NCBI GenBank assembly: GCA_051251855.1
Contig: JBPOGI010000007.1
Span: 160,001 to 224,000 of the forward strand
DNA from: Roseibacillus sp.
GTDB taxonomy: Bacteria > Verrucomicrobiota > Verrucomicrobiia > Verrucomicrobiales > Akkermansiaceae
Reading direction: 5' to 3'
DNA: 64,000 nt
Made by a program: the position numbers and the translations under genes. Shown here piece after piece: positions 9,647 through 24,332 of this stretch; positions within the stretch are counted from its first letter, which is position 1; each line of letters begins with the position of its first letter. Below the pieces are notes generated by a model, which worked only from the letters and a program-made list of their open reading frames with translations, had not been told where the DNA came from and ran no database searches.

Positions 9647-10654
9647 ATGCCGCGAGCTTCTCATCAACAGACCATCTACCGCCAATGGCTCATCTTGCGG
9701 AAGCTGACCACCCGTCGCCCGGGAATCACAGCTCGGGAGATGAGGGACTATCTGGAAGGTGAAGACGTCCCCGTCACCAAGCGCACTGTCGAGCGTGACC
9801 TCAACGAACTCTCTCGCATCTTTCCCCTAGAGACCAGCGAAGGTAGCCCGCCCATCGGCTGGCGTTGGCGTAAGGATGCGGTGCAAGAGTTGCCGGGGCT
9901 CGAGCTCGTTGATGCGCTTTCCCTCTCGCTGGTGGGAGACCTTCTCAACCAAACCCTCCCCGCCAGTCTTCACCCCTCGATCAGCGCCCGCGTGGCCGAG
10001 GCTAGGGGCAAGCTGGATGCCCTTCCCAATCACTCCGTGTCCGCTTGGTCTCAAATGGCGCGCTACCTTCCGCCCGGCCAAGTGCTCCTCAAACCCACCG
10101 TCGACCCCGACATCTTGCATGCCGTCGAGGAAGGACTGGTAGGACAACGGCAACTCAGCGTCTGCTATCAAGCTCCCGCTGCATCCGAAGCATGGAGCAC
10201 TCACATGCACCCGGTGGCGCTTCTCTCTCATGGCTCTACCCCCTACCTGTTAGCGAGCCTAGGGAAAGGAACCGAAATCTGGCAATATCCCCTACACCGC
10301 TTCCTATCAGCCGAGCTCACTGAGACTCCTTCCTGGCGACCACCCGGCTTCGAACTCGACGAGTTCCTCGCGCAAGGACAGGCCAGCTTTGGAAAAGGAA
10401 AAACAATCCGCCTCGAAGCCCAGCTTGACGAATCACTCGCCAAGCTTCTTCGGGAAACTCCGCTCACGGACTCCCAAACCATTCGCGAAAAAGACGGTCG
10501 CTTCCTCCTCAAGGCCTCCGTTCAATATTCCTGGCAGTTGGTCTTCTACATTCTCTCGCAAGGCCCCAAGATCACCGTCCTCAAGCCCAAGTCCCTTCGC
10601 AACGAAATCATCGCCAGCCTTCAGTCCGCCCTCCAGAACTACAACCCGTCCTAA
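9647..10654 (+). CDS. wHTH-WYL-WCX transcriptional regulator (BrxR/CapW/DriD-like)
   Basis: HTH VTKRTVERDLNEL; WYL-like HPVALLSHGSTPYLLA...YPLHRF; WCX-like ILSQGPKITVLKPKSLRNEI. Confidence 0.92.
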   Translation: MPRASHQQTIYRQWLILRKLTTRRPGITAREMRDYLEGEDVPVTKRTVERDLNELSRIFPLETSEGSPPIGWRWRKDAVQELPGLELVDALSLSLVGDLLNQTLPASLHPSISARVAEARGKLDALPNHSVSAWSQMARYLPPGQVLLKPTVDPDILHAVEEGLVGQRQLSVCYQAPAASEAWSTHMHPVALLSHGSTPYLLASLGKGTEIWQYPLHRFLSAELTETPSWRPPGFELDEFLAQGQASFGKGKTIRLEAQLDESLAKLLRETPLTDSQTIREKDGRFLLKASVQYSWQLVFYILSQGPKITVLKPKSLRNEIIASLQSALQNYNPS

Positions 10655-10658
10655 TTCC

Positions 10659-12170
10659 ATGCGCCAACTCTCCAAATCCAAGATCATCGCCTTCCGTCAA
10701 TGCCCCAAACGGCTCTGGCTCGAACTCCATCGCCCGGAACTCCGCGACGACTCCGGCAGCGAGTTCGCTTTCGCAGTCGGCAATCAAGTCGGAGACATTG
10801 CTCACCTCATCTACGACCCCGAACAAAAGGGCCAGCTCATCGACATCCAGGAGATGGGATGGGACACCGCCTACTCAGTCACCGCCGATTGGTTAGCGGA
10901 CCAAGAGGCCCCACTTTTCGAAGCCGCACTCCGCATGCGCGGCGGGATCGCCCTCGCCGACGTCATGCTGCCCCAACGCGATCAGAACGGACTCCAATGG
11001 AACATGATTGAAGTCAAAGCCTCCACTGGTCCCAAGGACTACCACCACGACGACATCGCGGTGCAAGCCTACGTCGCCCGCGAGTCAGGAATCCCGCTCT
11101 CAAAAGTCTCCTTAGCCCACGTCGATATCACCTTCGTCTACCCGGGAAGCGGCGACTACCAAGGCCTGCTCAAGGAAGTCGACATGACTGAAGAAGCCAG
11201 CTCTCGGACAGCGGAAGTCGCGGGCTGGTTCGACGAAGCCCAAGCCATCGCCGCCCAAACAGAAGAGCCTCGCATCGAGCCCGGCCCGCAATGCCATAGC
11301 CCTTTCACCTGCGGGTTCTGCAAGCACTGCATTCCCGAAAAACCTCTCATGGACTACCCTCTCACCTCCTTCTATCGACTGGGTGCTGCAGGCATCGAAA
11401 CACTCGAGGCCGCTGGCTACAACGACGTGCGAGACGTGCCCGCCGACCAGCTCAGCTTCATCAACCAGCGCATCCGAGAGCACACCATCAGCGGCGAAGC
11501 CTACTTCGACCAAAAAGGAGCGGCCGGCGACCTTGCCAAACACCGGGGCGAGCCCCGCTTCCTCGACTTCGAGACCATCGCCTTCCCCGTCCCCATCTGG
11601 GCCGGCACGCGCCCCTATCAGCAGCTCCCCTTCCAATTCAGCCTTCACCACTTGGAGCGCTCTGGCGAAGTCCATCACCGCGAATGCCTCGACACCTCCG
11701 GAGACGATCCCCGCCCCGCCATCATCAAAGCCCTTCTCGACCACTGTGGCGACTCCGGGGACAGTGGCCCCATCTTCGCCTACAATGCCCCCTTCGAGAA
11801 AAAGGTCATCAAAGACCTCATCACCGCCTTCCCCGTGGAAGCCATCGGCCTCACCAATATCCTCAGCCGCATCGAAGACCTCCTCCCCATCGCCCGCAAA
11901 CGCTACTACCATCCCAGCCAACACGGCAGCTGGAGCATCAAAGCGGTCCTTCCCGCCATCTGCCCGGACCTCAGCTACAACGACCTCGAAGGCGTGCAAG
12001 ACGGAATGATGGCCCAACAAAGCTACCTCGAAGCCATCGCCCCCACCACCAACCCCGAGCGCCGCGAAGAAATCCACAAACAACTCCTCGCCTACTGCCT
12101 GCTCGACACCCTCGGCCTCGTAAGAATGTGGCAATTTTTTAAGAGCCAGCCCCTATCCAGAAACGCATGA
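10659..12170 (+). CDS. DUF2779 protein: Cas4-like PD-(D/E)XK nuclease fused to an RNase H-like exonuclease
   Basis: LSKSK...QCPKRLWL, ADVM...IEVKAST, Cys cluster CHSPFTCGFCKHC, FLDFET, YNAPFE, SIKAVLP, YCLLDT; ATG at 10659. Confidence 0.85.
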   Translation: MRQLSKSKIIAFRQCPKRLWLELHRPELRDDSGSEFAFAVGNQVGDIAHLIYDPEQKGQLIDIQEMGWDTAYSVTADWLADQEAPLFEAALRMRGGIALADVMLPQRDQNGLQWNMIEVKASTGPKDYHHDDIAVQAYVARESGIPLSKVSLAHVDITFVYPGSGDYQGLLKEVDMTEEASSRTAEVAGWFDEAQAIAAQTEEPRIEPGPQCHSPFTCGFCKHCIPEKPLMDYPLTSFYRLGAAGIETLEAAGYNDVRDVPADQLSFINQRIREHTISGEAYFDQKGAAGDLAKHRGEPRFLDFETIAFPVPIWAGTRPYQQLPFQFSLHHLERSGEVHHRECLDTSGDDPRPAIIKALLDHCGDSGDSGPIFAYNAPFEKKVIKDLITAFPVEAIGLTNILSRIEDLLPIARKRYYHPSQHGSWSIKAVLPAICPDLSYNDLEGVQDGMMAQQSYLEAIAPTTNPERREEIHKQLLAYCLLDTLGLVRMWQFFKSQPLSRNA

Positions 12171-13363
12171 ACAACCTTCAAACCGAAATTAGCCATCTCC
12201 TTATCAAAACCGAAGAAATATGCCGACGCTTCGAAGAGGTAGAGAAAACGACCGGAGCCGGATTTAACCTCCTCCATCTTCTCAACATGGGTCACTACGA
12301 AGCAAAAACTCACACCCCCATTTTGACAGACCTTCTGAACCCTCAGGGTTCGCACGGTCAAGGTGACGTCTTTCTCAAATTGTTTCTTACAGTGTGCTTC
12401 GAGAAAGACTTAGGCTTTATGTCGAAAGCCTCCGGGATCGTGGTCACGGAGGAAAAATACATCGGACGAGTAAATAGCGAACAAGCGTCTGGGGGTAGAA
12501 TAGACATTTTCTTAGAGTCATCACAAGGTGAACTCCTAGCCATCGAGAACAAAATCTACGCTAACGAACAGGACCAACAACTGCAACGCTATCTCAACTA
12601 CGTGAGCAGAGCCAAAGAGAACGGACGCGTTATCTACCTCACCCTCGACGGCCAAGAACCCGGTTCCATCAAAGGTAACAAGCCTGAAATTCTCTCGTGT
12701 ATCTCCTATCAATCACACATCGTCGACTGGCTCCGACTCTGTCGCAAAGAGGTCACAACGATTCCCACGATTCGCGAATCCCTCACAATCTATATCAACC
12801 TCATTTGCGAACTCACCAACCAAAGCCCCAACCAAGAAATGAATAAAGAGATTATGGAGTCAGTGTTAGAATCGCCTAGTAGTTTAGCGGCATACCTCGC
12901 TCTTCCGAAGGAAAATGAAATCCAGCAGTCCATCTTTGACAATAAAGTTGAAGAGATAAAACGGATTGCAAAAGAGCATTCGCTAGGCTTCTCGTTGTCC
13001 GAAAAAAAAGTAGCGGACCAGTATTTTGGTTTCAATTTAAAGTCCGAAAGCTGGTCAGATTTTTGGATCTGCTTCAACTTTGATAGCGCAAATTGTAAAA
13101 ACCTATTATTTGGATTTCAAGACGATGGTAGGCTTATTGAAGAAGAGCGGCAAACACTCAACCAAATGGTCTCGTCTCAATTTGGTGAAAGCACTGTTAG
13201 GAAAACCAAAATGTGGCCAGCTTGTCCGTTTTGGACAAAATATAGGAATTGGCACGGTGAAACTCTATCAGAAGTCGCTTACGGCAGCTTTCTCGAAGAT
13301 TTGGAAGAACAAGTGGCAACTTTCAAAAAGCTCGGTGACGAATTCGCAAGAACGACGCACTAG
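12167..13363 (+). CDS. PD-(D/E)XK nuclease family protein (PDDEXK_4-like)
   Basis: LLNPQGSHGQGDVFL, GRIDI...AIENKIYANEQDQQLQRY, IYLTLDG; ATGA overlap with the upstream gene. Confidence 0.88.
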   Translation: MNNLQTEISHLLIKTEEICRRFEEVEKTTGAGFNLLHLLNMGHYEAKTHTPILTDLLNPQGSHGQGDVFLKLFLTVCFEKDLGFMSKASGIVVTEEKYIGRVNSEQASGGRIDIFLESSQGELLAIENKIYANEQDQQLQRYLNYVSRAKENGRVIYLTLDGQEPGSIKGNKPEILSCISYQSHIVDWLRLCRKEVTTIPTIRESLTIYINLICELTNQSPNQEMNKEIMESVLESPSSLAAYLALPKENEIQQSIFDNKVEEIKRIAKEHSLGFSLSEKKVADQYFGFNLKSESWSDFWICFNFDSANCKNLLFGFQDDGRLIEEERQTLNQMVSSQFGESTVRKTKMWPACPFWTKYRNWHGETLSEVAYGSFLEDLEEQVATFKKLGDEFARTTH

Positions 13364-13387: not shown

Positions 13388-13527
13388 CAAATGGTTCATG
13401 ACCGATTTTCTGAGGCTCGCAGACTGTACTAGGCCCAATGAGAGGTTTCTCATCAAGCCTTCCGACAATTACGAGTGGACCCATTCCTATTCACCCGTTA
13501 GAACAAGCCTTCTTCTGTAATTCACAC

Positions 13528-16500
13528 ATGAAAACACTCAAGTGCTGCCAGCCTCGCCAATCCGTTCTTGATGGTTCGGAAGACTTTGTAGTCAACCTCT
13601 CTGCCCTTCAGGAACTGAGCGAGGCCGAAGCCAAAGAGTTTCTCGATGCCAACGTCCTCACCTCCGGAATGGAGGAACTCATCAGCCAGTCCTTCGACAG
13701 GCTAGCAGGCGGGCCAAGCCGAGGCATCTTCAAGCTCTCCGAGTCCATGGGCGGCGGAAAGACCCAGAGCATGATTGTCTGCGGACTTCTCGCTCGTTTC
13801 CCGGCACTTGCAGCGAGCCTCCACTTTGCCAAAGCACCCAAAAACGTCAATCCCGACCACGTCATCGCCTTCACTGGCCGAGATACCGACAAGAACATCT
13901 GGATCACCTTGGGCGAGGTATTCGATGCCGACTTCGTGGAAGACTCCGCCCCGTCGGAAAAGCAGTGGGCCGCTTTGCTTAAGGGAAAGAGCGTTCTCTT
14001 TCTCTTGGACGAACTCGCCTTCTATCTCGTCCACGCCAGCACCAAGGGCGACAAGGAAGAAGGAGCTCGTTTCTCAAAAAGAACCTCCATCGCCCTGACC
14101 AACCTCTTCGGAGCAGTGCGAGATCACAAGGAGGCCTCGCAGTCAGCAGTTGTCGTCGCTGACCTGCAAAAAGACTGGGACCAAGGCCACGAAGAATTGG
14201 CTAAGATCATGCGCTCCGATGCCACCTTGGGCGGCACCATTCAGAGTGCGGACAACGAGATGAGCAAAGGAGCAGTCTCCATCTCACCGGTTGATAACAC
14301 CAAGGACGAACTCTACTCCATCCTTCGCAAACGCCTCTTCAAGGACATCGCGGTCTCCGATGCAGAAAAGAAAGAAGTCATCGATGCCTATTTCAACGAA
14401 CTGCAAACCGCCAAGAAGGCCGGGCTCATAGAGCGAGCCTTGCCTACCATCCGCGAGGAACTCGAAGTCTCCTATCCTTTTCACTTTTCGACCAAGCACC
14501 TTATCGAGACCTTCAACGACAATCCCGGCTTCCAAAAGACCCGCGACGTCATCCGTCTCATGGCCTCAATCGTTCGCTCGATTTGGGAACAAGGCGACGC
14601 AGCCGTCTCACAACACCTACTCCTCTCACTCGCCTCTCCCGACCTCAACGTCTCAGCCGTTGCTTCTCGCTTTAAGGAAATCAAACGCTCCCTCGAAGGA
14701 GCCCTTCAGACCGATCTCGCCAACGGCGGCACCTCCTACGCGGAGAGCCTCATGTCGGAGACTGACGGCCTCTCATTGCCTGCCGCGAAGTGGATCTACG
14801 CCGCCTCCCTCTCCGATACGCGACCACATGGCCTTTCCAAAGAAGAGCTCGCCGAATACATGGCCGCTCCCGGAGTCGACATCTCCGGCCTCGGCTCCGC
14901 CTTGGAGGAGCTATCTCGCACCAGTTGGTATCTCGACCAGTTCCGCAGCGGGCGCTTCTTTTTCAATAAGGTCAAGAACCTCAATGCCCAGATCAACTCC
15001 CACTACAAGCTCTGCTCCGATGCCGATCGAGACGACTTGATCGAGGACAAGCTCCGCGAAATGTTCGATCCTCGGGACAAGCGTTGTTATCAAAACCTAG
15101 AAATTCACCCCGACCTTTCCAAAGTCCGCCTCAGCCGCGACAAGACAACCCTTCTCATCTGCCAACACGACGCGGACTACCAAGCCTTCTTTCAGAACGA
15201 AAAGTTCAAGAACCGCGTCGCCATCCTTACCCTCCTCGACCCCGCCGGACTCCTCCGAATTCGTAACCACGCCAAGCGCTTTTGGGCCATCCGCGAAGTC
15301 CTTAAGGACATGACCAAGGATGACCAACAGTTTGAAAAGGCCAAAGGCGAGCAGACCAACATTCAGACCGAGCTCTTCATGGCTCTCCGTTCGCTCTATG
15401 CACGCCTCTTCTACCCCCTCGGCGATCCTACAACGGGAGACACCAAGCTAACCGACACCACTCTCCTCGACTCCTTTCAAGACGACCTTACGGGCCAAAA
15501 CATTAAGTTCGAGGGCGACAAGAACAGCTCCAAGGGAGAACTCGTCGTCGAGAGCACCCTCCGCTCAGTAGCCAAGTTCCACGTCATCCCAACTGCCACC
15601 GGTGGCGACAAGCTCAAGGGCTACAAGTCCCTCCGCACCCGCTTCGAGCAATTCCTCTTCCCGTCTTCCGGACGCGCCTCTTGGGATCAGCTCATTGATG
15701 GCGCAGCCAGCCGAGGCATCATGGTCTGGACCGAGCCCGGCACCTCTGAGCGGATGAAGGACGCCCTCCTCACCGCAGGAGAGTGGCGTCAGGAGGCGGG
15801 ACAAATCCTCAAACCTCCCTTCGTGGAACTCGCGACCGTTCACATCGATTATGATCGCAATGCCAAGACCGGCAGCATCACCACCACCGACATCAAGCTC
15901 ATTCACGGTGACAGTCTCTTCGTCTCCGAGGACGGCGGACCGGAGAAAAAGATCAAGCACGACGAGGCCTTCGTCTCCGACGCCATGACCCTCGTCTTCC
16001 AATGCCGCGACTCCACCGGCAAGAATCAGGATGGCACGCCCTACACCATTCAGAATCAGGTCACCCTTAAGCACGAGTTCCTCGATTGTAGCACCCCGGG
16101 CCATCGCACCCTCAAGCTCGGGGTCGTGCCCACTGATTCCATCGTCAAGTGGACCGCCGACGGGAGTGATGCAGCCAACAACGGACAGCCCTATTCCGCT
16201 CAAGGCATCGACGTGCCGGAGGGAGCGACCGTGAAAGTCTTTGCGGAAAAGAACGCCACTCACAACGAGCTCTCCATCCCAGTCCCCAAAGACGATGCCG
16301 GCGATGACGATGACCAGCCCACCACCGGACTCGATCTCGACCTCCCCGCCAATCTCTCCTCTCAAGCCATGCGCAAGATGGAGCTCTCCACCCGCTTGGC
16401 CGTGCACGGACTTCTCAGCAAGCTCCCCCCCGGAACCACCATCTCCGGGGCCCGCGCTAAGGTCGTCAAGGCCGCTACCGACAATCGGGTTGCCGTCTCT

Positions 16501-16689
16501 TGGGACGGGAAGACCGAAGTCTCTCCCGAGCGCATCTTCAAGGCTTACGAATTCCTCGATGCTGAACTGCAGGATGCCGAGTGGGAACTGGAGGCGACTG
16601 GTAAAATCGTCTTTCCGTCTGGACGGGAGTTCTTGGATTGGCAAAAAGAGACCTCCTACAAGATCGCACCCGGATTCATCACCCAATGA
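13528..16689 (+). CDS. DUF499 ATPase (restriction-like anti-phage system, subunit 1)
   Basis: Walker A ESMGGGKTQS, Walker B LFLLDEL, ILRKRLF, SYPFH, GFQKTRDVIRLMA; Fn3-like VKWTADGS near the C-terminus; ATG at 13528. Confidence 0.88.
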   Translation: MKTLKCCQPRQSVLDGSEDFVVNLSALQELSEAEAKEFLDANVLTSGMEELISQSFDRLAGGPSRGIFKLSESMGGGKTQSMIVCGLLARFPALAASLHFAKAPKNVNPDHVIAFTGRDTDKNIWITLGEVFDADFVEDSAPSEKQWAALLKGKSVLFLLDELAFYLVHASTKGDKEEGARFSKRTSIALTNLFGAVRDHKEASQSAVVVADLQKDWDQGHEELAKIMRSDATLGGTIQSADNEMSKGAVSISPVDNTKDELYSILRKRLFKDIAVSDAEKKEVIDAYFNELQTAKKAGLIERALPTIREELEVSYPFHFSTKHLIETFNDNPGFQKTRDVIRLMASIVRSIWEQGDAAVSQHLLLSLASPDLNVSAVASRFKEIKRSLEGALQTDLANGGTSYAESLMSETDGLSLPAAKWIYAASLSDTRPHGLSKEELAEYMAAPGVDISGLGSALEELSRTSWYLDQFRSGRFFFNKVKNLNAQINSHYKLCSDADRDDLIEDKLREMFDPRDKRCYQNLEIHPDLSKVRLSRDKTTLLICQHDADYQAFFQNEKFKNRVAILTLLDPAGLLRIRNHAKRFWAIREVLKDMTKDDQQFEKAKGEQTNIQTELFMALRSLYARLFYPLGDPTTGDTKLTDTTLLDSFQDDLTGQNIKFEGDKNSSKGELVVESTLRSVAKFHVIPTATGGDKLKGYKSLRTRFEQFLFPSSGRASWDQLIDGAASRGIMVWTEPGTSERMKDALLTAGEWRQEAGQILKPPFVELATVHIDYDRNAKTGSITTTDIKLIHGDSLFVSEDGGPEKKIKHDEAFVSDAMTLVFQCRDSTGKNQDGTPYTIQNQVTLKHEFLDCSTPGHRTLKLGVVPTDSIVKWTADGSDAANNGQPYSAQGIDVPEGATVKVFAEKNATHNELSIPVPKDDAGDDDDQPTTGLDLDLPANLSSQAMRKMELSTRLAVHGLLSKLPPGTTISGARAKVVKAATDNRVAVSWDGKTEVSPERIFKAYEFLDAELQDAEWELEATGKIVFPSGREFLDWQKETSYKIAPGFITQ

Positions 16690-17540
16690 GACCTACCCCA
16701 CCAGAGATTCCATCCTTCGGCGTCGTCGATCCTGATGGCGAGCACGGTGTCCTCACCACGGACTCTGGGGCCCCTCGTTGCCTGCTCACCTTGGTCGCCC
16801 GCACGGAACGCGGCTTTCCCCGTCACGAGCTTGCCGCTATCCCAATGGCTACTTGGCGACAACTCTCCACCGTAGTGCAGAAGGAACTCGCCCGGGGCAT
16901 GGACCCCGAGGAATTGGGTTCCTCCAAGGCTCCTCTCTTTCGCTCCGGCGAGCAAGCTCTCAGCCCCCTCGTCACTCGGGAACTCGCCGTTCTCTTTTGG
17001 GCCTTGATGGAGGATGGCGAAGGCACCCACATCGACGCCCTTTTGACTGGCTGGCGTCAGCTCGCCCGCGAGGAGCGTTGGTGGCTCTATGCTCGGGCCA
17101 GTAATCCGAGCCAGAAGCAGGGCCGAGGTTGGCGACGGGCACTTTACTTTGCCCTCACCGACCCCGCAGACACCCGCACCGCCCCCCGCATGCTAGACAT
17201 CATGGACGCGGCGGATGCTCAAAAAAAAAGCTTGGGGACCAAACGCAAAGTCGACTATCGCGACAGTCTCAAGAAGAAAGCGGCCAGCAAGAAGACAGCC
17301 AAAAAGACGACTCCCAAGAAGGCTCCCCAGAAAACCGTCAAGAAAATCGCGGCCAAGAAGACCGTGAAAAAAGCGAACACGAAGCCCTCCCCACCGAAGG
17401 CGAAGACCCCGCCCTCTCCCCCGACAAGAGCGAAGAAGAAGAGCACAAGTCTGAAAAAATCAGCCCCTCGCAAGACCTCGAAGACCCCGGTAAAAAAAGC
17501 GACAGCCAAGAAGGCGACGAGCCGCCAGACCCGCCCGTGA
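16686..17540 (+). CDS. DUF3780 family protein with Lys-rich tail (alternative -1-frame tail to 17560, see findings)
   Basis: RELAVLFWALME, WRQLAREERWWLY and GWRRALYFALTD signature; ATGA overlap with the DUF499 stop. Confidence 0.82.
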   Translation: MRPTPPEIPSFGVVDPDGEHGVLTTDSGAPRCLLTLVARTERGFPRHELAAIPMATWRQLSTVVQKELARGMDPEELGSSKAPLFRSGEQALSPLVTRELAVLFWALMEDGEGTHIDALLTGWRQLAREERWWLYARASNPSQKQGRGWRRALYFALTDPADTRTAPRMLDIMDAADAQKKSLGTKRKVDYRDSLKKKAASKKTAKKTTPKKAPQKTVKKIAAKKTVKKANTKPSPPKAKTPPSPPTRAKKKSTSLKKSAPRKTSKTPVKKATAKKATSRQTRP

Positions 17541-17564
17541 ATCAGCTCGAATTATTCTAACTCC

Positions 17565-20500
17565 ATGCCCACCCCTCCTCAGAAGAGCCTCCTCGAAGTC
17601 CAATTCCCCATCGGCCAATTATCACTGGAGAGTTACATTGAGAGAAAAGCCGGCGCATCTCAGTTTCTAAATAGCCTTGGCAAGTGGTGGGGCTCTAAAC
17701 CTTTGGTCCTCACTAGAGCTATCATTCTCGGCTCTCTCTTTGAAGCTGACGATGACCCGGAACGCTGGCCCGACGATTTGGAGATTTTCCTGCGACTGAT
17801 GGCGTTTGACAATGCCGGAATGTGGAAACGCAAAAAGAAAAAGCTGCCTGCTTCTCTTTGTTATACATACGCCCAAGAAAACGAACTTCCCCTCTTTCGT
17901 GATCCAACGACGTGGGCCAAAGGTTTTTCTCCCGAAAACCGAAAAAGGCAACTCGCTTTGGAGAAACGGGCCTTCTATGCACTCGACCACGCAGACCAGC
18001 GGCCTTTTTGCTTCCGAGTCGAAGAAATCGAAGGACCACCCGAAGAGAGCTGGCAGGAGATCAATTCTTACTGCGGAACAAATGCTCATTCTCTAACAGA
18101 ATGGGTCGAAGAAATGTCACAACGCCGCTTCGGACGTAAGCTCAGAGTCGGTGACGCTTTCAGTGGGATGGGGTCCATCCCCTTTGAGGCAGCCGAGCTG
18201 GGCTGTGATGTCTATGCGTCCGATCTCAACCCTGTCGCCTGCCTACTTACTTGGAGTGCCCTCAATGTCCTCGGCAGCGATACTAAATTCCATGAAAAGC
18301 TTTCTGCCGCTCAGCAAAAAATTTATCAGGAAATTGACGAGTGGTATCTCGAGTCTGGCCTCGAAACCAGCGAGGAAGGCTGGCGAGCTGCTTTTCATCT
18401 CTACTGTGTCGAGGTCGAGGTGCCCGAGTGGGACGGATGGAAAATTCCAGTAGCTCCATCTTGGCAAGTCGACACACAACATGGAGCATGGGTAGAATTA
18501 GTCCCAATCCACGAAGAAAAGAGGTTCGATTTTAAAGTCTGCTTCGACCGAGAAGGGTATGACCTTGCTCGGAAAGGCTCGAAGCAAGGAACTGACGTCG
18601 TCTGCCCCGGAGTTCTTTGGGAAATTCTTCATGAGAAGAAGAAGGCAGGAAATACTACTCGTTCGATTAAACTCTCTACCCTAATCGAAAACCATGGCGG
18701 ACTGAGAAAGTGGGAGAAATCCGACATCATCCCAAAAGAGGGTGATTTTTTTAGCGAGAGACTCTACTGCATTCGCTGGATTAAGCCCGTTGTTTACGAT
18801 GACCACCAAGGAAACGAAATAGTAGCTCAAGAACTCATCTACCGAGAACCCCTTTCCCATGACCTTAATGCCGAAGCCGAAATTGTTCAGAAAATCGCAG
18901 GCTCTCTAGAGGAATTACACGAGGACGGTTGGATTCCAAACTGGAGAATTCAGAACGGAGAAAAAACACGTGAGCTCATACGTACCCGCGGATGGACACA
19001 TTGGCATCATCTTTTCACTCCAAGACAACTGTTGATGGTTGCCGAGCTCTCACGTCGAGTTGAAGGATCTGAAGTCGACATTCGAATGGCCCTGACATTA
19101 GGAATTGGAAAGCTTGCGGATTATGGCAGCAAACTAGCACATTGGCTGCCATCCGATAGTGGAGCTATTGGGGGCTCCAAACAGACATTCTACAACCAAG
19201 CATTTAATACCTTTTTCAATTTTCCTGCACGAGGGTGGATCCAACTTAAACCTCAAGTATGCCTAACTCATCGTTGCTTGGGTCCATTCACAGGCTCATG
19301 TGATACAAAAGTTGGTGATGCCCGCTACAGTGAAACAGACTGCGACCTTTGGATCACCGACCCTCCTTATGCTGATGCCGTCAACTATGAAGAGCTGTCC
19401 GAGTTCTTCCTCGCTTGGTATAAGCCCCACCTTCAAGCCTGCTTTCCCGATTGGTATACTGATTCCAAGCGAGACAAGGCTGTCAGAGGCGAAGACGCTT
19501 CGTTCCGAGTATCAATGGCCGAGTGCTATTCGCGCCTAGCACAGAAGATGCCAGCAGATGGCCTTCAAGTGCTCATGTTCACCCACAAAGACACCGACGT
19601 CTGGGAAGACCTCGCCTTAATCATGTGGTCGGCAGGATTACAGGTGAAGCAAGTCTGGAGCGTCGCAACTGAAACCCCGGGCGCAGGCATTCGAGTTGGA
19701 AACCATGTCCAAGCCACCTACAACATGGTGCTCCGCAAACGCCCCGCAGACGCACCGATGGGCTTTGTCGACCTAGTCATTCCACAAATCAAAACACGGG
19801 TGGAAGAAGTGATTCGCCACATGCGGGACAGTCAGATTCAGTCCGGCGGGTTAAACTGCGGCTACACCGATACCGACTACCTCCTTGCTGCCCAAGCGGT
19901 CGCCGCCGAGGTGGTCACTGGCTTCTCCAGCATCGACGGCATCGACCTCGACGAAGAACTCCGCACCCCGAACAAGGAGCGTGGCAACTCCGTCCTGAAG
20001 GACATGATGAACCAAGCGAAGCGCACCGCAGTGGACTTCCTCGTGCCCTTGGGCCTAGAGGAACACCTCCGCCGCTCGCCGGATGGCACAAGTGCCTACC
20101 AATTCTGGCGCAATCTTTCACCGGAGGAAAAATTCCTTCTCAAGTCCCTCGAACTGGAAGCGGGCGGAGTCGGCAAGATTGGAGCCTTCCAAGACCTCGG
20201 TCGCGCCTACGGCATCGCTGACTACGAAGACCTCCTCGGCCCCGTCGTCGCCAACGAAGCCCGCAGCAAGCTCCCAAGCGAGTTTCCCCGCGCCGACCTA
20301 GCCCGCTGGGAAGACTTGCCCGCCAACGAGCGCACCCACTTCCCCCACAGCGTGACCCGCCACCTTTACCAAGCTCTCAAGATGCTCTCCGAAGGAGCGG
20401 ACGCTGACCGAGCCGTCAAACACCTCGTCGATAGCACCAACTTCTGGTCCGACCGTCAGGGCAAACACCTCGTCATCCTCGCCTACCTCTACCAAACCAC

Positions 20501-20579
20501 CGAAGCCAACCAAGCCTGGCAAGACCTCCGCCCCCTACTGCAAACCTTACGGTTGGCAGTCGAGAACCATCGCGCTTAA
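17565..20579 (+). CDS. DUF1156 adenine-specific DNA methyltransferase
   Basis: LEVQFPI..LS.ES..ERKAG, LGKWWG.KPL, motif I DAFSGMGSIPFEA, motif IV ITDPPYAD. Confidence 0.9.
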   Translation: MPTPPQKSLLEVQFPIGQLSLESYIERKAGASQFLNSLGKWWGSKPLVLTRAIILGSLFEADDDPERWPDDLEIFLRLMAFDNAGMWKRKKKKLPASLCYTYAQENELPLFRDPTTWAKGFSPENRKRQLALEKRAFYALDHADQRPFCFRVEEIEGPPEESWQEINSYCGTNAHSLTEWVEEMSQRRFGRKLRVGDAFSGMGSIPFEAAELGCDVYASDLNPVACLLTWSALNVLGSDTKFHEKLSAAQQKIYQEIDEWYLESGLETSEEGWRAAFHLYCVEVEVPEWDGWKIPVAPSWQVDTQHGAWVELVPIHEEKRFDFKVCFDREGYDLARKGSKQGTDVVCPGVLWEILHEKKKAGNTTRSIKLSTLIENHGGLRKWEKSDIIPKEGDFFSERLYCIRWIKPVVYDDHQGNEIVAQELIYREPLSHDLNAEAEIVQKIAGSLEELHEDGWIPNWRIQNGEKTRELIRTRGWTHWHHLFTPRQLLMVAELSRRVEGSEVDIRMALTLGIGKLADYGSKLAHWLPSDSGAIGGSKQTFYNQAFNTFFNFPARGWIQLKPQVCLTHRCLGPFTGSCDTKVGDARYSETDCDLWITDPPYADAVNYEELSEFFLAWYKPHLQACFPDWYTDSKRDKAVRGEDASFRVSMAECYSRLAQKMPADGLQVLMFTHKDTDVWEDLALIMWSAGLQVKQVWSVATETPGAGIRVGNHVQATYNMVLRKRPADAPMGFVDLVIPQIKTRVEEVIRHMRDSQIQSGGLNCGYTDTDYLLAAQAVAAEVVTGFSSIDGIDLDEELRTPNKERGNSVLKDMMNQAKRTAVDFLVPLGLEEHLRRSPDGTSAYQFWRNLSPEEKFLLKSLELEAGGVGKIGAFQDLGRAYGIADYEDLLGPVVANEARSKLPSEFPRADLARWEDLPANERTHFPHSVTRHLYQALKMLSEGADADRAVKHLVDSTNFWSDRQGKHLVILAYLYQTTEANQAWQDLRPLLQTLRLAVENHRA

Positions 20580-20582
20580 TCC

Positions 20583-23324
20583 ATGGCTCTCCAAAGATTC
20601 AGCTCCAGACGCGAACGGCTCTTCGATGCCTTCCTCTCGAAACGTTTACCAGAAGCCACGAGCTATGACCGCATCGCGGGCTACTTTCAGTCTAGTCTTC
20701 TTTCTCTAGCAGCCGAGGAGTTCAAGGCCATCAAAACGGTCCGTATCGTCTGCAATACGGAGGTCAATCCAGCTGATGTCCATGCCGTCCGACAAGCGGT
20801 CGGTCCGAGACAAGAAGAGTTGCAAGCAGCCCTCCTTCGCATGGTCTGGAACAATGGGAACTTTCCACACGTCGTCGACGTCTACGGAGAGAAAGCAAAG
20901 AAGAGACTGCGCCTCTTGCAAGACCTCATAAAAGGCGATCCCAAAACTGGTCGCAGCTTGGAAATCCGCATCGTGCCCGACAGTGAGTTTGGCTTCATCC
21001 ACGGCAAAGCCGGAGTGCTTCGTTATCCAGACGGCAAAGCGACCTCCTTCATGGGAAGTGCAAACGATACTCGGCGTGCTTGGATGGAAAACTACGAACT
21101 CGTCTGGGAAGATGACGAGCCTGAAAGTGTTGCTTGGGTGCAGGAAGAGTTCGACGCCCTCTGGGACCGAGGCTTCCCCATCAGTGAGTTCATCGTCAAG
21201 CAGATGGGCCGTCTAGGAGAACGAACGGTAATCGAACACGTAGGCTCCTGGCAGCAGAAGCCAGAGATTGCCGCCGTCCTCGCCGAAGTTCCCACCTGCA
21301 CCGAGTTGTTCGGATTTTGGGACCACCAGAAATACTTTATCAAGAAGGCCTTCGACGAACATCGTCTCTACCAAAAGCAATCTGGCCGGGGTGCCCGCTT
21401 CCTGCTTGCGGATGGTGTAGGACTAGGAAAAACCCTCCAGCTTGGCGGACTTGCCAAATTGATCGGAACTCTCGATAAGGAGCCTATTCTCATCATTGCC
21501 CCCAAGGCGGTCGTGAGCCAGTGGCAGGAAGAGATGATGGACAAGCTAGCGGCCCCCAGCGCGGTCTGGACCGGCAAAGGCTGGCTCACCGAGCGAGACG
21601 AATTCCACCCTGCTACCGAAGACGATGTCACCAACTGCCCACGCAAGATCGCCATCGTTCCCACCTCCGTCATTCTCAGCGCTGCGAGAAGCAAATTGAA
21701 CGGCAAGCTCACCGAAGACCTTCTGAAGATGAAGTTCAGCTGTGTGCTATGGGACGAAGCTCACAAGATCCGTCGCTCCAACCTCAAGGAGCCAAAAGTC
21801 TGGCAAACACCCGAGAAGAACCTCCTCTACGATTGGGCGCTCAAACTCTCCAAGCAAACCAAGTCCATGGTCTTGGCTACTGCTACCCCAGTGCAAATCC
21901 ATCCGGTGGAACTTTGGGACCTCCTCGCTGTCTTAGCAGAGGGAAACCCTCAGGTCCTCGGCTCGGACTTGAGCCGGTGGAAGGATGCCACCAATCCGGT
22001 AATGTTCGACATTCTAGCCGGTCGCGTGAAGGTGGAGAATCCTTACGAGAAATGGGAATGGTGGAAAGATCCTGTTCCCGGAGAAGAAGAACGAGACGTC
22101 TTCCGGCTCATCCGAAGTTCATTGGAGCTAGCAGCGACCAAAGACACCGCAGTAAATGCTGACTTCGACGAAATCGATGAATTTGATCGAGACGAACTCG
22201 CTCAAATTGATTTACGAGAACTTAACCCCTTCACCATTCGGGTCATCAAGCGCTCCCGGGAACGCCTGGAGCAAGAGGGTAAACTTGTCAAAATTGAGCT
22301 GGTAGCCGTGGACGACGAGCGCCCAGTAGTCTCCACCCATAGTGTCCGGCAAGCGCTGGAGCTGGCGGAAGAATTTTCACAAGAACTCTACGAAAAAACA
22401 AAGGCTGCTGGCTTCATTAATACTGGCCTGCAACGGCGTGTCGGTAGCTCAGTCTATGCCGGGCTCAAAACCGCCGAACGCATGCTCGAAGAGAAAGATG
22501 TCGAGGACGAAGAAGGATTGGACGAAACAGGAGAAAGCCTTTATCCTCTAACTGAAGTCGAAAGAGAATTGTTAGAACGCCTCCGTGGTCACCTGGCGAG
22601 ACAATGGGAACAAGAGGGCGATCCCAAATTCGACCGTATTCTAGAGACCTTGACCTCGGACTTTGAAGGAGAGACCTGGTTGAAACTAGGAGCTCTTGTC
22701 TTCAGCCAATACTACGACTCCGCTTTCGCGCTTTGTGAGTTTCTTGCCAAAAACTTGGATATCCCTATTGGCCTCTATGCGAGTTCCAGTTCATCAAAAC
22801 TCTTTGAAGATGGGAAGGTGCAATCTGTCGATCGGGATCTACTCAAGGAAAAGGTCAAAACTGGAGTCCTCAAGCTCATGGTAGGAACTGATGCCGCAAG
22901 TACAGGCCTAAACCTACAAACCCTTGGCAGCCTCATCAACCTCGACCTCCCTTGGAACCCCACGACCCTTGAGCAACGGAAAGGCCGGGTGCAGCGAGGA
23001 ACCATGGGCAAGAGAATCCCCTTCTGCAACCTACGTTACGATGAAGGGGTCGAGCAAAGACTCTTCAACGTTCTGACCGGTCGGATCCAGGAGATCACCA
23101 ACATCTTTGGCACCGTCCCAGACTTCATCACCGACCGCTGGGTCACCGACATGCTGGAAAATCGCGACCTGAAGGAAAGCGACCTCGTCACCCTCATCTC
23201 CGACCAAGAAACCAGCCCCTTTAGCGTCAAAGAGACCTACGAGTATCTCGATGAAGAATGGGAAAACACCGCCGAGGTCCTCAACTCCCGAGAAGCAGTC
23301 GCGGTGTTCTTAAATGGCTGGTAA
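20583..23324 (+). CDS. PLD-like nuclease-SNF2 helicase fusion (restriction-like system)
   Basis: YDRIAGYF, FIHGKAG...GSAN (HKD-like), LLADGVGLGKT, WDEAHK, LATATP, GLNLQ, DLPWNPTTLEQRKGRVQR. Confidence 0.9.
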   Translation: MALQRFSSRRERLFDAFLSKRLPEATSYDRIAGYFQSSLLSLAAEEFKAIKTVRIVCNTEVNPADVHAVRQAVGPRQEELQAALLRMVWNNGNFPHVVDVYGEKAKKRLRLLQDLIKGDPKTGRSLEIRIVPDSEFGFIHGKAGVLRYPDGKATSFMGSANDTRRAWMENYELVWEDDEPESVAWVQEEFDALWDRGFPISEFIVKQMGRLGERTVIEHVGSWQQKPEIAAVLAEVPTCTELFGFWDHQKYFIKKAFDEHRLYQKQSGRGARFLLADGVGLGKTLQLGGLAKLIGTLDKEPILIIAPKAVVSQWQEEMMDKLAAPSAVWTGKGWLTERDEFHPATEDDVTNCPRKIAIVPTSVILSAARSKLNGKLTEDLLKMKFSCVLWDEAHKIRRSNLKEPKVWQTPEKNLLYDWALKLSKQTKSMVLATATPVQIHPVELWDLLAVLAEGNPQVLGSDLSRWKDATNPVMFDILAGRVKVENPYEKWEWWKDPVPGEEERDVFRLIRSSLELAATKDTAVNADFDEIDEFDRDELAQIDLRELNPFTIRVIKRSRERLEQEGKLVKIELVAVDDERPVVSTHSVRQALELAEEFSQELYEKTKAAGFINTGLQRRVGSSVYAGLKTAERMLEEKDVEDEEGLDETGESLYPLTEVERELLERLRGHLARQWEQEGDPKFDRILETLTSDFEGETWLKLGALVFSQYYDSAFALCEFLAKNLDIPIGLYASSSSSKLFEDGKVQSVDRDLLKEKVKTGVLKLMVGTDAASTGLNLQTLGSLINLDLPWNPTTLEQRKGRVQRGTMGKRIPFCNLRYDEGVEQRLFNVLTGRIQEITNIFGTVPDFITDRWVTDMLENRDLKESDLVTLISDQETSPFSVKETYEYLDEEWENTAEVLNSREAVAVFLNGW

Positions 23325-23339
23325 AATGAAAACGAAACC

Positions 23340-24332
23340 ATGATCTACGACGGAAAAAACAAGTTTACGGAATGGAAATTCCCTAAGGAGAAGGATATCG
23401 AAGAAGCAATTCAGAAGGTTCGCTCAGAGCTTTTCGGTTCCTCAAGAATCTACCTGGAAGTTAAGAAATTAATCGGCAAGAAGGGCGGCCAGATGAACAT
23501 TCCGGATGCCTACGTCCTAGATTTATCGAGCGCCAAGGCACCCAAACTCTTTGTGGTAGAGAACGAGCTTTCGAGCCACGATCACTTGCGGCACATCGCG
23601 GTTCAGATTCTACAGTTTTCGTTAGCCTTCGAGACAAATCCACACCGTGTCAAGGAAGTGCTCAGAGGAGCGCTCAAAGCGGACCAAGAAGCGGAAGCCA
23701 GGGTTCATGCTTACGCGACCTCCAACGGCTTTGATAACATCGACTACCTCTTGGAACAGATGGTTCACCGTAAAGAGGCATTTAATGCCCTAGTCATCAT
23801 TGATGAACTCAACGACGAGTTAGAGAACATCTTGAAAGAGAAATTCCGCTTCCCGGTCGAGCTTCTCACCCTTGAGCGATTTCGAAGCGAAAAGGGAGAA
23901 GTCTTTTACAAATTTGAACCCCTACTTGGAGACGTCGACTCATCGGACGAGGGCTCCACGTTGCCTCAGCTCGACCCTGCGGAGCTGGACACAGTTGTCG
24001 TCCCTGCACAGGAGGAAGGATTCACTGAGACCTTCATCGGAGAGAATCGCTGGCACCACATTCGAATGAGTGCAGCAATGATTCCCCAAATCAAATGGAT
24101 TGCAACCTACAGGGTTGCCCCCCTTTCTGCGATTACCCACGTGGCTAAGGTAGCTAAAATTCAGCCCTACAAGGACACGGGAAAATACGAGCTGCTTTTC
24201 GAGGGACCGCCCGAAGAATTGAAGAAGCCAATTCGACTCATTCCCAAAAGTGCCGTGAAATCGGTTCAAGCCCCCCGCTACACAGCCCATCAACGACTGA
24301 TTAACGCAAAGGATCTCAACGAAGCATTTTAA
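23340..24332 (+). CDS. Putative PD-(D/E)XK endonuclease with C-terminal accessory domain
   Basis: EKDIE...IPDAY...FVVENELSSHD...QI pattern; separate C-terminal domain DTVVVPAQEEGF...YRVAPLSAITH. Confidence 0.65.
   Translation: MIYDGKNKFTEWKFPKEKDIEEAIQKVRSELFGSSRIYLEVKKLIGKKGGQMNIPDAYVLDLSSAKAPKLFVVENELSSHDHLRHIAVQILQFSLAFETNPHRVKEVLRGALKADQEAEARVHAYATSNGFDNIDYLLEQMVHRKEAFNALVIIDELNDELENILKEKFRFPVELLTLERFRSEKGEVFYKFEPLLGDVDSSDEGSTLPQLDPAELDTVVVPAQEEGFTETFIGENRWHHIRMSAAMIPQIKWIATYRVAPLSAITHVAKVAKIQPYKDTGKYELLFEGPPEELKKPIRLIPKSAVKSVQAPRYTAHQRLINAKDLNEAF

Follow-up and report, generated by a model that had tools for sequence, protein, structure and literature searches.

Which protein does the small second gene of a bacterial defence operon encode when a run of nine A's in its middle is followed by two long, open and entirely different frames? 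The question is raised by a stretch of 64,000 nucleotides, here called the window, from Roseibacillus sp. (Verrucomicrobiota, Akkermansiaceae; assembly GCA_051251855.1, contig JBPOGI010000007.1, positions 160,001 to 224,000). It contains a four-gene operon, mtsA to mtsD, which by its gene content is a MANTIS operon (Gao_RL; a type-2 DUF499-centred BREX-related system). mtsB is its small DUF3780 co-regulator. Directly past the DUF3780 domain mtsB carries an A9 run; frame 0 then continues into a basic tail, and the -1 frame runs to a terminus of the type which binds the beta sliding clamp, QLELF. An earlier note, made from the letters of the window alone, had proposed that programmed recoding or phase variation generates two isoforms. 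Comparison with homologues supports two-isoform recoding as the best reading, with one isoform ending in a clamp-type motif; with respect to mechanism the evidence leans away from phase variation in the DNA. Our overall conclusion, to which we assign a probability of roughly 70%, is that a conserved A9/A10 run in one deep mtsB clade serves recoding into two isoforms, one of which possesses a clamp-binding terminus.

The situation in the window is easily described (Table 1). Past the run frame 0 has 102 codons with a net charge of +36. The -1 frame is open from 17129 to 17560; 109 of its codons lie past the run with a net charge of -21, and it closes with TAA at 17558-17560. The +1 frame is closed by a stop at 17365-17367. 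mtsA and mtsB share an ATGA overlap at 16686-16689, and mtsC and mtsD are separated by 3 nt (20579/20583). The distance between mtsB and mtsC is 24 nt when counted from the frame-0 stop and 4 nt when counted from the -1 stop. The positions which the earlier note had listed all hold in the sequence. The 4.96-Mb genome has eight A9/T9 runs in all and none that is longer. Calculated from the coordinates, the isoform with the -1 tail would have about 291 aa (residues 1-181 plus the -1 tail). Automatic annotation reports the frame-0 protein only and overlooks the isoform with the conserved motif. In an AlphaFold2 model of MtsB the mean predicted local distance difference test (pLDDT) is 70-94 in blocks over residues 1-130 and falls below about 50 in the frame-0 tail, which is thus predicted to be disordered. 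For the -1 tail the composition (rich in D/E/S/Q/P, 11% hydrophobic) and a partner pLDDT of 42-43 in a complex model likewise suggest disorder. The MtsB fold had no match at E <= 0.001 when compared with the PDB by Foldseek, and a profile search of PDB sequences gave 0 matches; the fold is uninformative, which agrees with the two published MANTIS studies.

Is this arrangement a peculiarity of one genome? A protein search yielded 255 homologues, of which the 120 listed are the basis of all figures per protein. At the DNA level 28 genome and 80 metagenome loci were collected, i.e., 109 sequences including the window; 106 were analysed, and three in which the domain match ended before residue 150 were left out. 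Nearly all of the 120 listed homologues read A-Q-K-K and then proceed into a basic tail. Five switch to the other frame after AQK(K) and end with QLALF, QLDLF, QLDLL or QLELF. A run of nine or ten A's directly past the DUF3780 domain is present in 46 of the 106 sequences. Among these 46 loci a terminus of the form Q[LMIV]x[LMIV][FLM] is encoded by the -1 frame in 37, by frame 0 in three (L039, L055, L060) and by the +1 frame in one (L043). The five loci without a match comprise QPDLF (L036), QGDLFDD (L074), a disturbed locus (L030), one cut by the contig end (L045) and L006 with none. An extra A9 dual-frame case is L004 from Rhodopirellula, in which the run is located further downstream and the -1 frame ends with PPPNQLELF. 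When 30 -1-frame termini are aligned the Gln is invariant (30/30), the next residue is L, I or M, position +3 is Leu in 30/30, and position +4 is Phe in 28 and Leu in two.

The geometry of the junction is equally constant. Both frames extend 45-150 codons beyond the run. The frame-0 stop is situated 11-35 nt 5' of the -1 stop in 34 of 37 tabulated loci (L032 with 35 nt included); distances outside this range are 56 nt (L068) and 98 nt (L064). Where mtsC comes directly next, the -1 stop in most loci touches or overlaps the start of mtsC, with gaps mainly between -9 and +7 nt, L071 with a gap of +44 nt being an exception. The earlier note had suggested a comparison of DUF3780 homologues for an A run at the junction, dual open frames and a C-terminal QLxLF; all three are conserved across a deep clade. 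In eight loci (L001, L002, L029, L030, L040, L057, L074, L153) an extra 0.7-1.6 kb is found between mtsB and mtsC. The insert in the Deinococcus sp. NW-56 plasmid (L153:1339-1856) is a Phd/VapC toxin-antitoxin pair.

A quick maximum-likelihood tree was calculated from 94 domain rows, after 15 of the 109 rows with short or interrupted matches had been dropped. All 39 rows with A9 or longer runs fall into one clade of 46 rows with a support of 100 (Shimodaira-Hasegawa-like approximate likelihood ratio test, SH-aLRT). With L004 included, 40 of the 46 rows bear a run. The sister clade of 48 rows has none. The run clade spans records from Verrucomicrobiota, Planctomycetota, Bdellovibrionota and Thermodesulfobacteriota. 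The tree points to a single origin of the A9/A10 run. Run-less members of the clade have the motif in frame 0: L051 (QQLDLF), L069 (QEKLF) and L072 (QMPLF). In these three the longest open stretch in an alternative frame is 19-49 codons, compared with frame-0 tails of 59-81 codons, and counted from the end of the domain the alternative frames run into a stop after 1-29 codons. L001 has an A7, the motif in frame 0 and a basic frame which is still open; L005 and L035 look degenerate. Some representatives at 50% identity combine a basic linker and the motif within a single frame.

Two further peculiarities of the tails may be recorded here. In the -1 tails of the subclades L046-L058 and L061-L070 basic residues cluster immediately ahead of the motif in a conserved patch, ...PRRKKKKDGGNGNDPQIDLF and ...TKTRPSKRKAK..EDDQMRLF. 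Patch and motif together resemble an RKRRRP-plus-LF arrangement in distant run-less homologues. Three proteins (P0212, P0131, P0265) either have about ten frame-0-like residues past an EKK junction and then -1-like sequence, or a basic tail plus QLxLF in one frame. These layouts suggest secondary indels which have re-fused the frames.

How can the -1 tail be reached? Of 37 -1 open stretches 18 lack any ATG, GTG or TTG 5' of the run, and in nine of the 37 loci a -1-frame stop abuts the run, e.g., GCTGAAAAAAAAA. No ATG is among the listed starts (the last three upstream, the first four in the tail) in 28 of the 37 -1 open reading frames (ORFs). Because upstream -1 starts are missing and -1 stops abut the run, the tail is reachable only by ribosomes which come from the DUF3780 frame. 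On this basis we are highly confident that the -1 tail is produced fused to the DUF3780 domain. An independent small ORF in the -1 frame had been considered as well; the missing start codons rule it out.

Are the two frames open by chance? When the frame-0 protein was kept fixed and its synonymous codons were resampled, the -1 frame of the window stayed open in 0.1% of 2000 trials (P=0.001). Across the loci the mean probability of an open -1 frame, given the frame-0 protein, is 0.18; 6.8 of 37 are expected to be open, 37 of 37 are observed. Conversely, 28 of 30 representatives with less than 80% tail identity have a frame 0 which remains open until 36 nt or less before the -1 stop, as against 16.9 of 30 expected by synonymous resampling of the -1 codons and 14.3 of 30 when the codon order is shuffled, too. 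The nearest strain, available as Logan contigs from a second study, adds a different kind of evidence. Of 12 substitutions in the domain 11 leave the frame-0 protein unchanged. The six in the tail are synonymous in the -1 frame in four cases and in frame 0 in none; one of them converts the frame-0 stop TGA into TAA and is silent in -1. Three insertions of 12, 12 and 6 nt have occurred, and A9 is retained. According to this pattern purifying selection acts on frame 0 before the run and on the -1 frame past it. On the evidence of these comparisons the dual open frames, the motif and the run are not a product of chance; there is evidence that selection holds both frames open, with constraint at the level of amino acids in the -1 frame.

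What might the conserved terminus be for? The clamp-binding consensus is QL[S/D]LF, in its revised form Q-phi-x-[L/M]-[F/L] (10.1101/2025.08.20.671105). The Q-[LIM]-x-L-[FL]-COOH of the run clade fits. That QLELF belongs to the clamp-binding type, as the earlier note had maintained, is borne out by the consensus and by a complex model which docks the peptide on the host's DnaN. The model comprised the dnaA-linked DnaN of the host (L109:1501-2595) and the 43 C-terminal residues of the -1 tail, both entered as alignments. Its interface score (ipSAE) is 0.64 versus 0.03 for the best control, in which DnaN was replaced by an unrelated protein; 116 of 157 solved complexes attain a mark of 0.64, compared with two of 215 mismatched pairs. 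Between runs at least 33% of the contacts agree, and the partner pLDDT is at least 41. Tail residues 37-43 (VNQLELF) contact DnaN residues 171, 173-176, 241, 246, 277-279, 317, 319, 343, 345, 357 and 359-364, which we take to be the canonical peptide pocket between domains II and III. Peptide-clamp complexes have already been solved, so the score may partly reflect recall. The host's own polymerase IV homologue (DinB) ends with ...TQLELGL. Going by the model, the terminal motif of the -1 tail probably binds DnaN. A second, divergent DnaN-like ORF is present in the genome outside the window (G000:C6:224465-225553, minus strand), with 29% identity to the dnaA-linked DnaN and 28 bits against PF00712.

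Several observations weigh against this overall picture. The loci share ancestry, and the openness statistics therefore overstate their independence. In 27 locus pairs the substitutions per codon position are nearly flat in the tail (0.191/0.240/0.223), in the domain they are 0.124/0.080/0.407, and the slowest tail position is the wobble base in neither frame; at larger distances strong amino-acid constraint is evident in neither frame. The unused +1 frame, at +0.28 per residue, is basic as well. Homologues from outside the run clade mostly carry a Gln-less hLF[DGEK] as their C-terminal motif, and further residues often follow it: DLFSLPLFKDSK in many loci, TLGLFD in P. fluorescens, KLSLFDFIEKGDI in B. 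cereus, or GPGLFDTGED. Of 150 family representatives 11 have the strict motif and 45 an LF within the last 14 residues, many of the others being fragments. The ancestral peptide may dock on something other than the clamp, e.g., another MANTIS subunit. In vitro, MtsA, MtsB and MtsC were sufficient to reconstitute MANTIS methylation (10.64898/2026.09.23.753747); the clamp is dispensable for the core reaction. Finally, A10 and A7 alleles with the motif in frame do exist (5 of the 120 listed proteins; L055, L060, L001), which argues for some switching at the DNA level. A C-terminal motif resembling a PCNA-interacting peptide (PIP) was found in 0 of the same 150 representatives, the taxa of which are unassigned; for the wider family, PMC12839542 reports 119 archaeal taxa.

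The most serious competing view concerns the basic tail. It holds that only the -1 isoform is functional and that the frame-0 tail is a by-product which ends ribosomes beside mtsC, i.e., provides coupling without polarity. The frame-0 stop is indeed always a few nt 5' of mtsC (gaps of 3-31 nt in most loci), none of the six tail substitutions of the nearest strain is silent in this frame, and basic charge is shared by the +1 frame. Basic linker and motif occur in a single frame in P0131 and P0265, and the -1 tails of two subclades have an RRKKKK patch of their own. Against a mere by-product stands the composition, which is protein-like. The frame-0 tail consists of 16% K, 15% P, 12% S, 11% A and 10% T, C+W amount to 0.3% and K/(K+R) is 0.59; the +1 frame has 25% R, 2.5% C+W, a K/(K+R) of 0.18 and 38 stops. 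In this respect the frame-0 tail resembles a real basic disordered region, unlike the +1 frame. In the -1 frame of the window Glu is encoded by GAA 19 times and by GAG twice, in the genome at 50:50; the preference for GAA keeps Lys rather than Arg in frame 0. Further, the K-rich repeats are expanded in some lineages, and P0088 has a precomputed Pfam HC2 domain (PF07382). Codon usage does not discriminate (mean ln relative synonymous codon usage 0.064 in frame 0, 0.104 in frame -1, 0.063-0.166 in real genes). Taken together, we would put the by-product just short of an even chance. That the basic tail itself serves a function is a tentative proposition which we also hold at slightly less than even odds.

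The two tails had further been contrasted in the earlier note as a basic one and an acidic, possibly DNA-mimicking one. For the acidic tail this is not supported. The charge of the -1 tails varies from -21 to +8 across the loci, with a mean of -0.05 per residue, and an acidic DNA mimic is rejected as a family trait.

Alternatively, recoding is real and the LF motif docks on MtsA, MtsC or MtsD instead of the beta clamp. We view this as rather unlikely. The endings of the wider family, usually without Gln and often not at the very end, would agree with such internal docking. So would the transient nature of MANTIS subunit interactions and the unexplained mode by which MtsB activates methylation (10.64898/2026.09.23.753747), and the clamp model may owe its score to a memory of solved peptide-clamp complexes. 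On the other hand, the run-clade motif matches the clamp consensus exactly, with Gln in all 30 aligned termini, it forms the free end of a probably disordered tail, the host polymerase IV ends with QLELGL, and the difference between 0.64 with DnaN and 0.03 with an unrelated protein speaks for the clamp.

By which route is the -1 frame entered? Two routes would result in the same two products, slippage of RNA polymerase and -1 programmed ribosomal frameshifting (PRF) on A_AAA_AAA as in E. coli dnaX. The run has nine A's in 34 and ten in seven of 41 loci, and a run of 7-8 is never seen where both frames persist in these 41. Its first A falls on codon position 2 in 35 loci, on position 1 in three and on position 3 in two (40 of 41 rows tallied). 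Ribosomal frameshifting needs seven in-phase A's, usually plus a stimulator. An in-phase X_XXY_YYZ heptamer is contained in every A9/A10 run, whatever its phase, and in the window A_AAA_AAA is in phase; A_AAA_AAA is listed among PRF heptamers (PMC3711429), and the protein would be the same by either route. Yet seven A's would suffice, and the run is 9 or 10 in 41 of 41 loci. A downstream RNA structure is not conserved (mean z -0.1, n=38 loci). The hairpin which the earlier note had drawn behind the run can be drawn, but at -10.2 kcal/mol (z +1.46) it is weaker than shuffled sequence, 187 of 200 shuffles folding at least as well. An Rfam scan of 16600-17700 returned no frameshift element, only a chance match to a long non-coding RNA (E 0.63). 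A GAGG resembling a Shine-Dalgarno sequence upstream in some loci also codes for conserved residues and is thus uninformative with respect to ribosomal frameshifting.

Transcriptional slippage accounts for these features better. The A run is at least nine long, it is conserved in orthologues including the synonymous positions, and an ORF is conserved in the frame which one added A opens. In many bacteria selection against slippage-prone runs sets in at a length of nine, and the run used by Thermus dnaX is an A9 (PMC1088944). In bacteria A/T runs of nine slip efficiently in vivo, with one additional A as the commonest product (PMC5009743). One extra A is exactly what puts the motif frame in register here. 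A run of 9-10 in any codon phase, together with the lack of a conserved structure, favours transcriptional slippage, which from these comparisons is probably the main route to the -1 frame. Ribosomal frameshifting as the route is improbable.

Phase variation of the DNA alone would mean that replication slippage between A9 and A10 (or A7) permits one isoform per cell and results in mixed populations, comparable to phase-variable restriction-modification genes. Homopolymer switching is known in DNA methyltransferase genes (PMC3711429), and two metagenome contigs, L053 with A9 and L055 with A10, have identical tails and identical domain rows, the motif of L055 being in frame. Of the in-frame motif alleles, P0045 and P0077 are A10-like, P0039, P0086 and P0103 A7-like. 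However, the motif is out of frame in 37 of 41 motif-bearing A9/A10 loci and in 115 of the 120 listed proteins. An invariant motif which is mostly out of frame is hard to explain unless it is reached without a change in the DNA. Moreover, 0 of 47 contigs from a population at about 5000x have an indel at the run, where it must be added that contigs drop rare variants, and A7 alleles are not readily reversible. Judged by these sequences, phase variation alone is very unlikely. That the whole feature is an artefact, a homopolymer miscall or a decaying pseudogene, can practically be dismissed: homopolymers are error-prone and a few loci are disturbed (L030, L043, L035, L005), but dozens of independent assemblies, as well as the related-strain contigs of the second study, show the same A9 plus two open frames, and all four operon genes are intact.

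The operon which hosts this gene spans 13438-23324. All four genes are intact, co-directional and tightly packed, and comprise DUF499, DUF3780, DUF1156 and PLD-SNF2 proteins, the set by which MANTIS or type-2 BR is recognized. The earlier note had called it a restriction-like system; a defence-type methylation and restriction operon it is, but it need not have been left unnamed, since MANTIS is already known and partly characterised. The equivalog cut-offs of NCBIfam are missed by all four proteins in spite of strong E-values: 67 of 200 bits for MtsB (NF042961), 499 of 1200 for MtsA (NF042962), 964 of 1000 for MtsC (NF042963) and 960 of 1100 for MtsD (NF042964). These scores identify the Mts proteins, as far as sequence goes, as a divergent clade or subfamily of MANTIS and not as a separate family. 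A phylum-wide search with the standard Pfam model located DUF3780 in seven of 401 genomes, with 133-235 bits for the matches other than the window and 72 for the window; from these bit scores the DUF3780 proteins of the other genomes are probably of the canonical type.

Table 1. Coordinates of the mts operon, its recoding site and the adjacent nuclease-type genes in the window (position 1 is the first nucleotide of the 64,000).
Feature	Position	Strand	Description
DUF2779/Cas4-like nuclease-type gene	10389-12170	+	upstream of mtsA
PDDEXK_4 nuclease-type gene	12167-13363	+	PADLOC candidate PDC-S26 at 5e-98
mtsA	13438..16689	+	DUF499 AAA+ ATPase, 1083 aa; Pfam PF04465; PADLOC DUF499 1.5e-117
mtsB frame-0 ORF	16686..17540	+	284 aa; DUF3780 domain, then K/A/P/T-rich basic tail; PF12635 3.1e-19
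A9 slippery run	17221..17229	+	context GCT CAA AAA AAA AGC; first A is frame-0 codon position 2
-1-frame tail	17228..17560	+	110 codons (K, then LGDQTQ...PPVNQLELF) + TAA
frame-0 stop TGA	17538..17540	+	within codons just 5' of the -1-frame motif
QLELF	17543..17557	+	C-terminal motif of beta-clamp-binding type, Q-phi-x-[LM]-[FL]
mtsC	17565..20579	+	DUF1156 N6-adenine methyltransferase, 1004 aa; PF06634; PADLOC DUF1156_MTase 1.7e-224
mtsD	20583..23324	+	PLD-nuclease/SNF2-helicase effector, 913 aa; PLDc_2, SNF2-rel_dom, Helicase_C; PADLOC PLD_Helicase 6.2e-206

Directly 5' of mtsA a pair of nuclease-type genes with a mutual overlap of 4 nt occupies 10389-13363 on the plus strand. These may be accessory effectors of the MANTIS locus. 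On the other side an ORF of 330 aa (23340-24332, plus strand) starts 16 nt past mtsD; it has no Pfam, PADLOC or NCBIfam match.

How would recoding of mtsB operate? Unslipped mRNA would be translated in frame 0 into DUF3780 with a basic disordered tail lacking a terminal motif (284 aa). On the nine-A tract RNA polymerase would add one A in part of the transcripts and thereby direct a fraction of expression into the -1 frame; ribosomes slipping by -1 on A_AAA_AAA might contribute a smaller share. The -1 product would consist of DUF3780 and a tail ending with Q-L-E-L-F-COOH. Through QLELF, MtsB would be held at clamps on replicating DNA, and with MtsB the methylation machinery of MtsA and MtsC. 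Because MtsB is a dimer, homo- and heterodimers of the two isoforms are to be expected. One may go further and speculate, although we consider it unlikely in this complete form, that slippage sets a fixed ratio of isoforms, that the clamp isoform brings MtsA/MtsC to fresh DNA, and that the basic isoform, alone or in heterodimers, scans incoming DNA independently of the clamp.

In P. aeruginosa MANTIS dimeric MtsB and MtsA are needed for the hemimethylation of asymmetric sites by MtsC; the subunit interactions are transient, the authors call the role of MtsB unclear, and how it activates methylation is unexplained (10.64898/2026.09.23.753747). A two-isoform MtsB supplies a concrete, testable hypothesis for this role, i.e., that it links methylation or restriction to replication. 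If true, it would be a bacterial counterpart of DNMT1-PCNA coupling, with the timing of self/non-self distinction wired to the replisome. It would also solve the problem that one daughter duplex is left unmarked at asymmetric hemimethylated sites after replication. Within the literature searched such an MtsB would be without precedent in two respects, as a case of programmed slippage in phage defence and as a defence-system subunit with a clamp-binding motif. In addition, it is a rare bacterial case of a long overlap (45-150 codons) which is kept open in two frames.

The main text of PMC12839542 does not mention a frameshift or a clamp. In the main text of 10.64898/2026.09.23.753747 frameshift, slippage and DnaN are absent, and 'clamp' serves as an analogy only. 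The literature on DUF3780, on clamp motifs together with phage defence or BREX, and on programmed frameshifting in anti-phage systems yielded no description of an A run, two tails and a clamp motif; nor did the literature searched report a subunit of phage defence or restriction-modification with a clamp-binding motif.

How does mtsB compare with known systems? In gene order and families the operon matches the characterised MANTIS (Shaw et al., 10.64898/2026.09.23.753747; PMC12839542). There, MtsB is a small dimeric co-factor required for methylation (10.64898/2026.09.23.753747). Hemimethylation of asymmetric sites and MtsABCD-dependent restriction are known only from the MANTIS of P. aeruginosa.

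The closest parallel for the recoding is dnaX of Thermus thermophilus, which likewise has an A9 late in the gene, mRNAs with extra A's, and products with a shared N-terminal part and differing C-termini (PMC1088944; PMC5009743). It differs in that the shifted frames stop almost at once and the product is shorter, whereas in mtsB the shifted frame is long and carries a conserved motif. In tssM1 of Citrobacter rodentium (A11) poly-A slippage also results in two length variants; the canonical C-terminus is made only after slippage, and both forms as well as their ratio are needed. However, tssM1 is a type VI secretion system gene in which the unshifted frame stops immediately, while frame 0 of mtsB runs through a long second tail. 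Phase-variable DNA methyltransferases (phasevarions) share a simple-sequence tract in a gene of a methylation system and natural length variants. Their tracts switch on and off by early truncation; mtsB has two long, conserved frames and a single predominant genomic state. Finally, the clamp-binding proteins, among them DNA polymerases II and IV, MutS, Hda and RecB, likewise possess a short Q-phi-x-[LM]-[FL] peptide, in many cases on a disordered C-terminal end, and bind to the hydrophobic pocket of DnaN (10.1101/2025.08.20.671105), a binding which for MtsB is so far modelled.

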